From Escherichia coli (GTDB lineage Bacteria; Pseudomonadota; Gammaproteobacteria; Enterobacterales; Enterobacteriaceae): a stretch of DNA of 64,000 nucleotides. Below are positions 18,478 to 19,263 of the stretch, in pieces. Position numbers and translations under genes: made by a program. The stretch lies in NCBI RefSeq assembly GCF_050920415.1, contig NZ_CP169309.1. The stretch is one strand, 5' to 3'. The notes beneath the pieces were generated by a model that was not told the DNA's origin, did no database searches, and saw nothing but the letters and a program-made list of their open reading frames with translations. Position 1 is the first letter of the stretch; each line of letters opens with the position of its first letter.

Positions 18478-19263
18478 CTACTGATAGCGATTCACCAGAT
18501 CTTTAACCACTGCTGCGTACGTTTTCTGCTTAAGTTGTGAAATCTGCTGTTCTGCCACATCAAGGCTGTCAGAATTTTTATTCCCTATCTGCGGAAAAAT
18601 CACTTTCGATTCATAATTCACAGGCGACCAGGTAGCCCACTCACCTGTAGCCACATCCACCAGCGTGAATCGAACCAAATAACGCAGTGACATCGTGTCA
18701 GTCAATTTTTGATTTTTATAATCTGACCAAACTATTGATTTCAATCCAGAGTCATATTTTCCTGTCTGCAACGTATCCTGGAAAACAATAATCGCTTTCT
18801 GATGGCCTTTTGCCGCAACAAAACGTAATGCCTGCATCCAGTTCATATTTTCGGCATCTACAACATCCAGACTTTCATCTTTGTTTTTGTCTTTATTACA
18901 AGTTACAGGTTTTTGCCTGTCAGGAATGCCAGAAAATGTGGCAACTGTATAATATTTTCTCATCTCCTCCTGCATAATGGTTTCCGGTGCGCGACTGCCA
19001 GACTGAACAAGTATAACGGGAGAATTAAGAGGCACACGAAACTCATCTCCTTCAAGCGCAGCTTGAATATCCTCCTCGGATACAGCCAGTGTGGTTTCAT
19101 TACCATATAAATCTTTGTCTGTTAGTTGCTGGGGAACGTTTTTATTAATAGAACTTTGTGCGGTTTGAGTTTTTTTCTTTTTTTCATCAATAGGAGATTC
19201 AGAGGCACATCCTGCAAGCAGCGAGAATAATACACATATACAACAACCCCTTCTTAAATTCAT
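18478..19263 (-). CDS. yafT: Lipoprotein YafT (function unknown)
   Basis: 261 aa; lipobox LLAGC; markedly AT-rich coding sequence; position next to aspV as I recall for E. coli K-12. Confidence 0.85.

Follow-up and report, generated by a model that had tools for sequence, protein, structure and literature searches.

The gene yafT lies in a 64,000-nucleotide stretch of Escherichia coli DNA (the window, here and below), at the point where a T6SS gene cluster meets a tRNA-Asp gene. We identified the following features at this locus, given in order of position.

1..18136, plus strand: T6SS core cluster, 56.4% GC, extending leftward beyond the window.
16278..17639, plus strand: gene with ImpA_N and VasL domains (vasL), the commonest T6SS neighbour of yafT homologues in other genera.
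17657..18136, plus strand: hcp, an ORF that is the last gene of the T6SS operon and is convergent with yafT; its Hcp-family annotation comes from strain N96.
18137..18477, no strand assigned: spacer between the convergent genes hcp and yafT, 27.0% GC, occupied by variable cargo genes in other E. coli lineages.
18214..18253, no strand assigned: inverted repeat with 18-nt arms, a 4-nt loop and T-rich runs on both strands, found by repeat search.
18478..19263, minus strand: yafT, an ORF of 261 amino acids plus stop with an ATG start, spanning exactly the interval given to it in an earlier note on this DNA.
19207..19263, minus strand: signal peptide and lipobox of yafT (codons 1–19, LLAGC, Cys19), read from the translation.
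19264..19592, no strand assigned: spacer between aspV and yafT, 28.3% GC, the first island DNA, containing the terminator hairpin of the tRNA and the presumed promoter of yafT.
19593..19669, minus strand: tRNA-Asp(GTC), aspV, which anchors the island in the chromosome (ARAGORN and Rfam RF00005).

The T6SS core cluster begins in the window with the 3' end of tssC and continues with tssE, F, G, tagH, tssJ, K, L, H, vasI, tssA, tssM, vasL and hcp. Beyond aspV lie dnaQ, rnhA, yafS, gloB and mltD. Strain N96 has a YafT protein ('lipoprotein YafT', WP_001053596.1) with 100% identity to that of the window, and its whole hcp-yafT-aspV stretch is likewise 100% identical. The inverted repeat at 18214..18253 is likely a bidirectional terminator shared by hcp and yafT. 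Consensus scans for promoters and terminators gave no excess of matches over shuffled expectation, missed this repeat, and made no convincing call for a minus-strand yafT promoter. Searching positions 17600–19900 against Rfam identified nothing besides the tRNA, and PADLOC identified nothing.

Two observations concern other parts of the window. The tssM gene (12742–16269) is an uninterrupted ORF of 1,175 codons here and carries an 'internal stop' flag in the N96 annotation. The sole 100% match to tssM among the matches listed is from strain MFDS1022581, and the window and N96 may differ by a single base. A second tRNA-Asp is found at 27816–27892 and a tRNA-Ala/tRNA-Ile pair at 31242–31436, belonging to an rRNA operon that is rrnH by its K-12-like context. 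Because each genome holds three near-identical Asp tRNA targets, counts of similar sequences that include the tRNA are complicated.

At its N-terminus YafT has a basic n-region followed by a hydrophobic core; next comes the lipobox L-A-G-C, which conforms to the pattern [LVI][ASTVI][GAS]C of Lgt/LspA substrates. Cys19 is invariant in 17 enterobacterial homologues and at least 90% conserved in a 66-sequence alignment of the family. The +2 residue is alanine, which under the Lol +2 rule leads to outer-membrane sorting; by this rule YafT is predicted to be an outer-membrane lipoprotein. The earlier note had described yafT as a lipoprotein gene at the junction of island and tRNA, and both the lipobox and the position between hcp and aspV bear this out.

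All homologues of YafT, down to approximately 25% identity, carry the Pfam label PF25851 'YafT'. These labels and the name of the identical N96 protein give strong grounds for assigning the YafT of the window to this family, of which 211 members were identified when 1.8 billion representatives were searched with a profile. YafT proteins of different genera are 60–80% identical, with a mean column identity across genera of 76%, and dN/dS values of 0.08–0.21 in 12 pairwise comparisons indicate purifying selection. Other searches were less informative. Pfam-A scans of YafT and 66 family members produced no informative match, NCBIfam returned only sub-threshold, signal-peptide-like matches to Lpp/OprI and FlgH, a sequence search of the PDB found nothing significant, and Foldseek against AFDB50 recovered only family members with uninformative names. 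Many database records name YafT-family proteins 'aminopeptidase', across several phyla and, among the AFDB50 matches, in Verrucomicrobia, Alphaproteobacteria, Orbaceae and others. None of our searches supported this label: no peptidase family was matched in Pfam or NCBIfam, and no peptidase occurs among the fold matches listed. The name probably spread in error from an early annotation in E. coli.

A structure was predicted with AlphaFold from 66 family sequences (pLDDT 81.7, pTM 0.73), replacing a model built on 17 close homologues (pLDDT 62). In the model a flexible, Lys-rich tether about 25–30 residues long (approximately residues 20–45) follows Cys19 and leads to a globular alpha/beta domain, in which a four-stranded sheet is packed on a beta-alpha-beta core. 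The only other cysteine, invariant in Enterobacteriaceae, lies in a disordered Lys/Asp-rich loop (residues 116–139), and the protein ends in a long C-terminal helix (residues 233–260). By structural similarity, the globular domain as modelled has an LptE/PelC/CsgG-like lipoprotein fold. However, YafT shares only 7–16% identity with PelC, LptE and CsgG in structural alignments and matches none of their profiles, and the long C-terminal helix and the Lys/Asp-rich loop go beyond what is seen in these proteins. YafT is therefore not a member of the LptE/PelC family proper, and its likeness to PelC is one of predicted fold. No known T6SS component has this fold, and the protein matches none of the NCBIfam T6SS models.

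The base composition of yafT sets it apart from its surroundings. The gene has a GC content of 40.6% (GC3 35.5%), whereas the individual T6SS genes range from 51 to 61% (GC3 61–70%) and the neighbouring core genes from about 45 to 53%. Only 2.4% of 786-nt windows across the 64 kb are as AT-rich. The statement in the earlier note that yafT is AT-rich compared with both the T6SS operon and the core genes therefore holds, with one exception. The core gene gloB (21818–22573), 2.5 kb from yafT, is another stretch of low GC (40.2% GC, GC3 35.7%), and because it shares the composition of yafT, low GC by itself is no proof of foreign origin. The comparison extends to other genera. Where T6SS clusters are GC-rich (51–60%), the accompanying yafT is at 41–47% GC; in AT-rich T6SS lineages (clusters at 41–45%) yafT matches its cluster, both being at about 39–45% GC. 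Copies of yafT that are not linked to a T6SS have a host-like GC content of 51–64%.

We examined the distribution of yafT in 5,426 complete E. coli genomes. The gene is present in 4,179 (77%), nearly always as a single chromosomal copy, and absent from 1,247 (23%). In 757 genomes the site is empty and yafV directly adjoins aspV; other genomes that lack yafT carry either an IS1/ISAs1 scar or another island there. When island-bearing sequences, including those of K-12 and of a second common arrangement described below (variant 2), are aligned with empty sites, they are identical through the tRNA and diverge approximately 6 nt past its 3' CCA. Since the divergence begins there, the island starts with the spacer upstream of yafT and with yafT itself, and neither belongs to the backbone. 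Published comparisons have called yafT a 'core genome' flank of the T6SS island (PMC4232414). The complete island can be followed in N96, where the order is aspV | yafT, hcp, vasL, tssM ... tssB | hcp, vgrG, M35 peptidase, PAAR, vgrG, tla1, three copies of tli1a, tle1, IS remnants | yafV.

The island does not have the classical form of an integrase-type tRNA island. The first gene past the tRNA at all tRNA-linked loci is yafT and not an integrase, and at the yafV border we found no copy of the aspV 3' end in direct repeat. In six tRNA-abutting islands from the locus scan described below (L009, L014, L015, L019, L020 and L024) the spacing between the tRNA and yafT is 220–1,100 nt. At tRNA-Phe, -Ser, -Asn and -Asp genes alike, yafT occupies the tRNA-proximal slot that usually belongs to an integrase.

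The yafT alleles of E. coli are unusually divergent. The allele of the window (at least 90% nucleotide identity) occurs in about 600 of the 5,426 genomes. Most other alleles have approximately 83% nucleotide identity to it, including that of K-12 at 82.7%. K-12 YafT (b0217) is nonetheless an orthologue, with 82% protein identity and the same position after aspV, length and lipobox. The corresponding dS is 0.64, while the adjacent dnaQ product is 99% identical between the two strains. Compared with the K-12 protein, the allele of the window represents a minority class, is linked to a T6SS that is intact, and differs in its C-terminal loop (residues 219–238).

The stretch that separates hcp from yafT acts in E. 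coli as a slot for variable cargo. In the window it is empty, with a length of 341 nt. In variant 2 it holds an ORF of 304 amino acids and ykfM, and in O157-type strains a DUF1311-domain gene and small hypothetical genes; in two other loci that we analyzed the slot spans 11438–12841 (L044) and 11412–13113 (L043). The genes in this slot could be effector or immunity cargo linked to Hcp. We also considered whether K-12 ykfM (4923–5402 of locus L001) is a remnant of hcp, as both its length of 159 amino acids and its position are those of hcp; the two show no similarity, and we rejected this identification. YkfM is a very hydrophobic membrane protein encoded by an AT-rich gene.

The contexts of yafT homologues were collected by choosing one genome per species, which gave 26 loci, mapping T6SS proteins and tRNAs around each, and adding the contexts of divergent family members. 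At approximately 21 of 27 informative loci, from at least 10 genera of Enterobacterales, the yafT homologue lies directly next to or within a homologous T6SS cluster arranged as vasI-tssA-tssM-vasL(-hcp). Linked loci are found in E. whittamii, Pseudocitrobacter, Enterobacter asburiae, Phytobacter ursingii and Atlantibacter, in two Lelliottia, three Buttiauxella, four Citrobacter and three Trabulsiella, in two Budvicia paralogues, and in the second paralogue of Phytobacter massiliensis. Across these loci the identity of YafT falls from 96% to about 30–40%. Linkage to T6SS loci that is conserved across taxa is one mark by which Tag genes are recognized, and yafT shows it.

The surroundings of the linked loci are diverse. 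The nearest upstream tRNA may be Asp, Phe, Ser or Asn, or there may be none. The gene order also varies: we found yafT|hcp-vasL, yafT|vasL-hcp, yafT|hcp|tssB..., and yafT|vgrG-PAAR-...-hcp, as well as PAAR|yafT|vasL in Phytobacter massiliensis, an immunity array followed by yafT|vasL, and yafT placed after PAAR in Budvicia. Given such varied tRNAs and gene orders, the association of yafT is therefore with the T6SS and not with aspV. The earlier note had allowed that the T6SS link might be purely positional. For the Enterobacterales this is largely answered by the persistence of the link across tRNA sites and gene orders. Pairwise identities of YafT also follow the corresponding values for Hcp, VasL, TssM and TssA (Spearman 0.45–0.72), to about the same degree as the T6SS proteins correlate among themselves (0.63–0.69).

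Within E. coli, co-occurrence of yafT and the T6SS was judged from matched counts, junction-spanning queries and sampled genomes. The arrangement of the window, with hcp, yafT and aspV contiguous, was identified in 579 genomes, and tssM at 90% identity or higher in 550. Variant 2, in which the order is aspV-yafT-ykfM-hcp-vasL, was identified in 2,419 genomes, and its tssM class, at about 75% identity to that of the window, in 1,893. All sampled T6SS-positive genomes carry yafT, and none of these approaches turned up an E. coli arrangement that has the T6SS and lacks yafT. The converse does not hold. At least 1,736 complete genomes, K-12 included, have yafT with no detectable tssM, corresponding to about 40% of yafT-positive E. 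coli. K-12 itself retains an intact aspV-yafT-ykfM segment beside T6SS remnants and pseudogene scraps. The co-occurrence analysis proposed in the earlier note thus gives a divided answer, in that the linkage extends across genera of Enterobacterales while many E. coli keep yafT without tssM.

Based on its genomic context, we propose that yafT encodes a T6SS-associated accessory lipoprotein of a VasL-type T6SS island, and we give this reading a probability of roughly one half. An accessory role in the envelope is the best single hypothesis because the linkage to VasL-type clusters persists through rearrangement. The gene yafT is the constant gene at the tRNA-proximal end of this island, which has become widespread in the Enterobacterales; it lies with its own promoter region in an AT-rich block and is convergent with the T6SS operon. 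In this proposal, the protein would serve as a periplasmic or outer-membrane accessory of the T6SS. For example, it may aid the envelope-spanning part of the apparatus through assembly, anchoring or control at the outer membrane, much as its fold relatives dock on outer-membrane machines. More tentatively, YafT may be an unrecognised envelope component of the Enterobacterales VasL-type T6SS, an outer-membrane lipoprotein that docks the machine or controls its firing. Such a component might be oligomeric like PelC and CsgG and might have TssJ-TssM or the C-terminal domain of VasL as partners, and the AT-rich, silenced yafT block would be the regulatory end of the island.

T6SS envelope lipoproteins and Tag proteins include the core lipoprotein TssJ, TagQ and TagL. 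Like the Tag accessory proteins, YafT is an envelope protein that is encoded at a T6SS locus and whose linkage is conserved across genera. It differs from TssJ, which is encoded apart at 5142–5666, in being non-homologous, separately transcribed, and kept where the T6SS has been lost. Vibrio, Klebsiella and Serratia, all T6SS-positive genera, are absent among the named YafT matches listed, most matches being without an organism name, and YafT may not be a general requirement of the T6SS.

It is also possible, if somewhat doubtful, that YafT is a general envelope lipoprotein that is unrelated to the T6SS and has remained linked to it only through the descent of the island and its position at the edge. 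Several enterobacterial copies are found in unrelated contexts: four unlinked loci, in Citrobacter sedlakii, in one Phytobacter massiliensis copy, in an enterobacterial MAG (L023, a truncated match) and in Superficieibacter (L026, 42% identity), have no T6SS neighbours. Distant relatives at approximately 25% identity, from Alphaproteobacteria, other phyla and unclassified metagenome contigs, also have no T6SS neighbours, so that the family's ancestral function is T6SS-independent. The retention of yafT in E. coli genomes lacking tssM is consistent with such a history, as are the varied outer-membrane machines that the fold relatives serve. In addition, yafT has its own promoter region, lies outside the T6SS operon in convergent orientation, and differs in composition from GC-rich T6SS clusters.

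The locus in Pseudocitrobacter points in the same direction. There the T6SS proteins are 91–97% identical to those of the window and YafT only 71%. This gap indicates a recombination breakpoint in the spacer between hcp and yafT, such that yafT and the T6SS can be inherited separately. The sequence in question is from a Pseudocitrobacter MAG (L007, positions 9586–20687), in which the cluster occupies the dnaQ-aspV site and the core proteins are 78–93% identical; the set of identities there implies that the T6SS core moved between genera recently, the breakpoint lying between hcp and yafT.

However, across the divergence that separates the linked loci, one would expect a mere passenger to have dropped out or been moved elsewhere. 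Instead, the linkage holds down to 30–40% identity, through at least five gene orders and four tRNA sites, and includes positions internal to the T6SS. Additionally, the divergence of YafT tracks that of the T6SS proteins as well as these track each other. We consequently favor an accessory role.

That YafT is an immunity protein is improbable. By this account it would shield the periplasm from a T6SS effector, and K-12-like strains would keep an orphan copy. The Tle1 immunity protein Tli1 is reported to be a lipoprotein, and Tli1-type immunity lipoproteins have in common with YafT that they face the periplasm and are encoded in a T6SS island. The many T6SS-less genomes with an intact yafT would suit an orphan, and the neighbours of yafT in Budvicia and Phytobacter massiliensis include PAAR, Rhs and immunity arrays. 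However, effector-immunity pairs are recognized by the adjacency and co-transcription of the immunity gene with its effector and by variability among strains, and yafT shows neither. In E. coli there is no adjacent or co-oriented effector gene, and yafT faces a plain Hcp of 159 amino acids; Tle1 with the three Tli1a, the M35 peptidase and the VgrG/PAAR modules lie at the island's opposite end, at a distance of 20–30 kb. YafT is conserved in the manner of a structural gene, with dN/dS of about 0.1–0.2, and it is the hcp-yafT interval that carries variable cargo. Unlike Tli1, YafT is not variable and has no effector neighbour, and it has no similarity to Tli1a. The immunity-like role suggested in the earlier note is for these reasons unlikely.

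The least probable account is that yafT is AT-rich foreign DNA that reached the aspV hotspot separately from the T6SS: the 16-point GC gap to the operon, the very AT-rich spacers on either side, the deep divergence of the E. coli alleles and the Pseudocitrobacter breakpoint would fit such an insertion, but yafT accompanies the same T6SS at tRNA-Phe, -Ser, -Asn and tRNA-free sites, matches the GC content of the T6SS in AT-rich lineages and is no lower in GC than the core gene gloB, and no T6SS-positive E. coli configuration without it was seen. Of the proposal in the earlier note that yafT is foreign DNA at an integration hotspot, the accessory nature of the gene stands, given its absence from nearly a quarter of E. 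coli and the empty sites, while a separate insertion does not agree with its T6SS linkage across genera.

What is known of yafT expression comes from K-12. There the locus forms a transcriptionally silent extended protein-occupancy domain (tsEPOD), and it represses inserted reporters, even those with strong promoters, in all tested conditions (PMC4191405; PMC9561378). This silencing fits the AT-rich block around yafT, and AT-richness associated with silencing is one possible cause of the persistent composition of the gene. A site for the RpoS holoenzyme inside yafT has been reported from genomic SELEX (PMC5493296). Under the accessory-lipoprotein reading, the T6SS would have been deleted in K-12-like lineages and yafT left behind as a silenced remnant.

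The earlier note would have given up a T6SS connection if yafT were present in all E. coli lineages regardless of T6SS content, with unrelated expression and a non-T6SS fold. This came true in part. The gene does occur without tssM, its fold is not that of a T6SS protein, and the K-12 locus is silent (PMC4191405; PMC9561378), but yafT is not universal in E. coli.

In the literature that we searched, yafT is mentioned only as a flank or positional marker, with nothing on YafT function and no experiment connecting the protein to T6SS activity. The gene and its family are already catalogued; its membership in the T6SS island is the new element. The uncharacterized yafT gene of K-12 is misnamed as an aminopeptidase in many records, and published comparisons have treated it as a core flank. 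Recognition of yafT as part of the island gives a cleaner island border and accounts for the silent, AT-rich lipoprotein gene beside aspV in K-12. Should YafT prove to work together with the T6SS, the E. coli systems used as structural models would gain an outer-membrane accessory.
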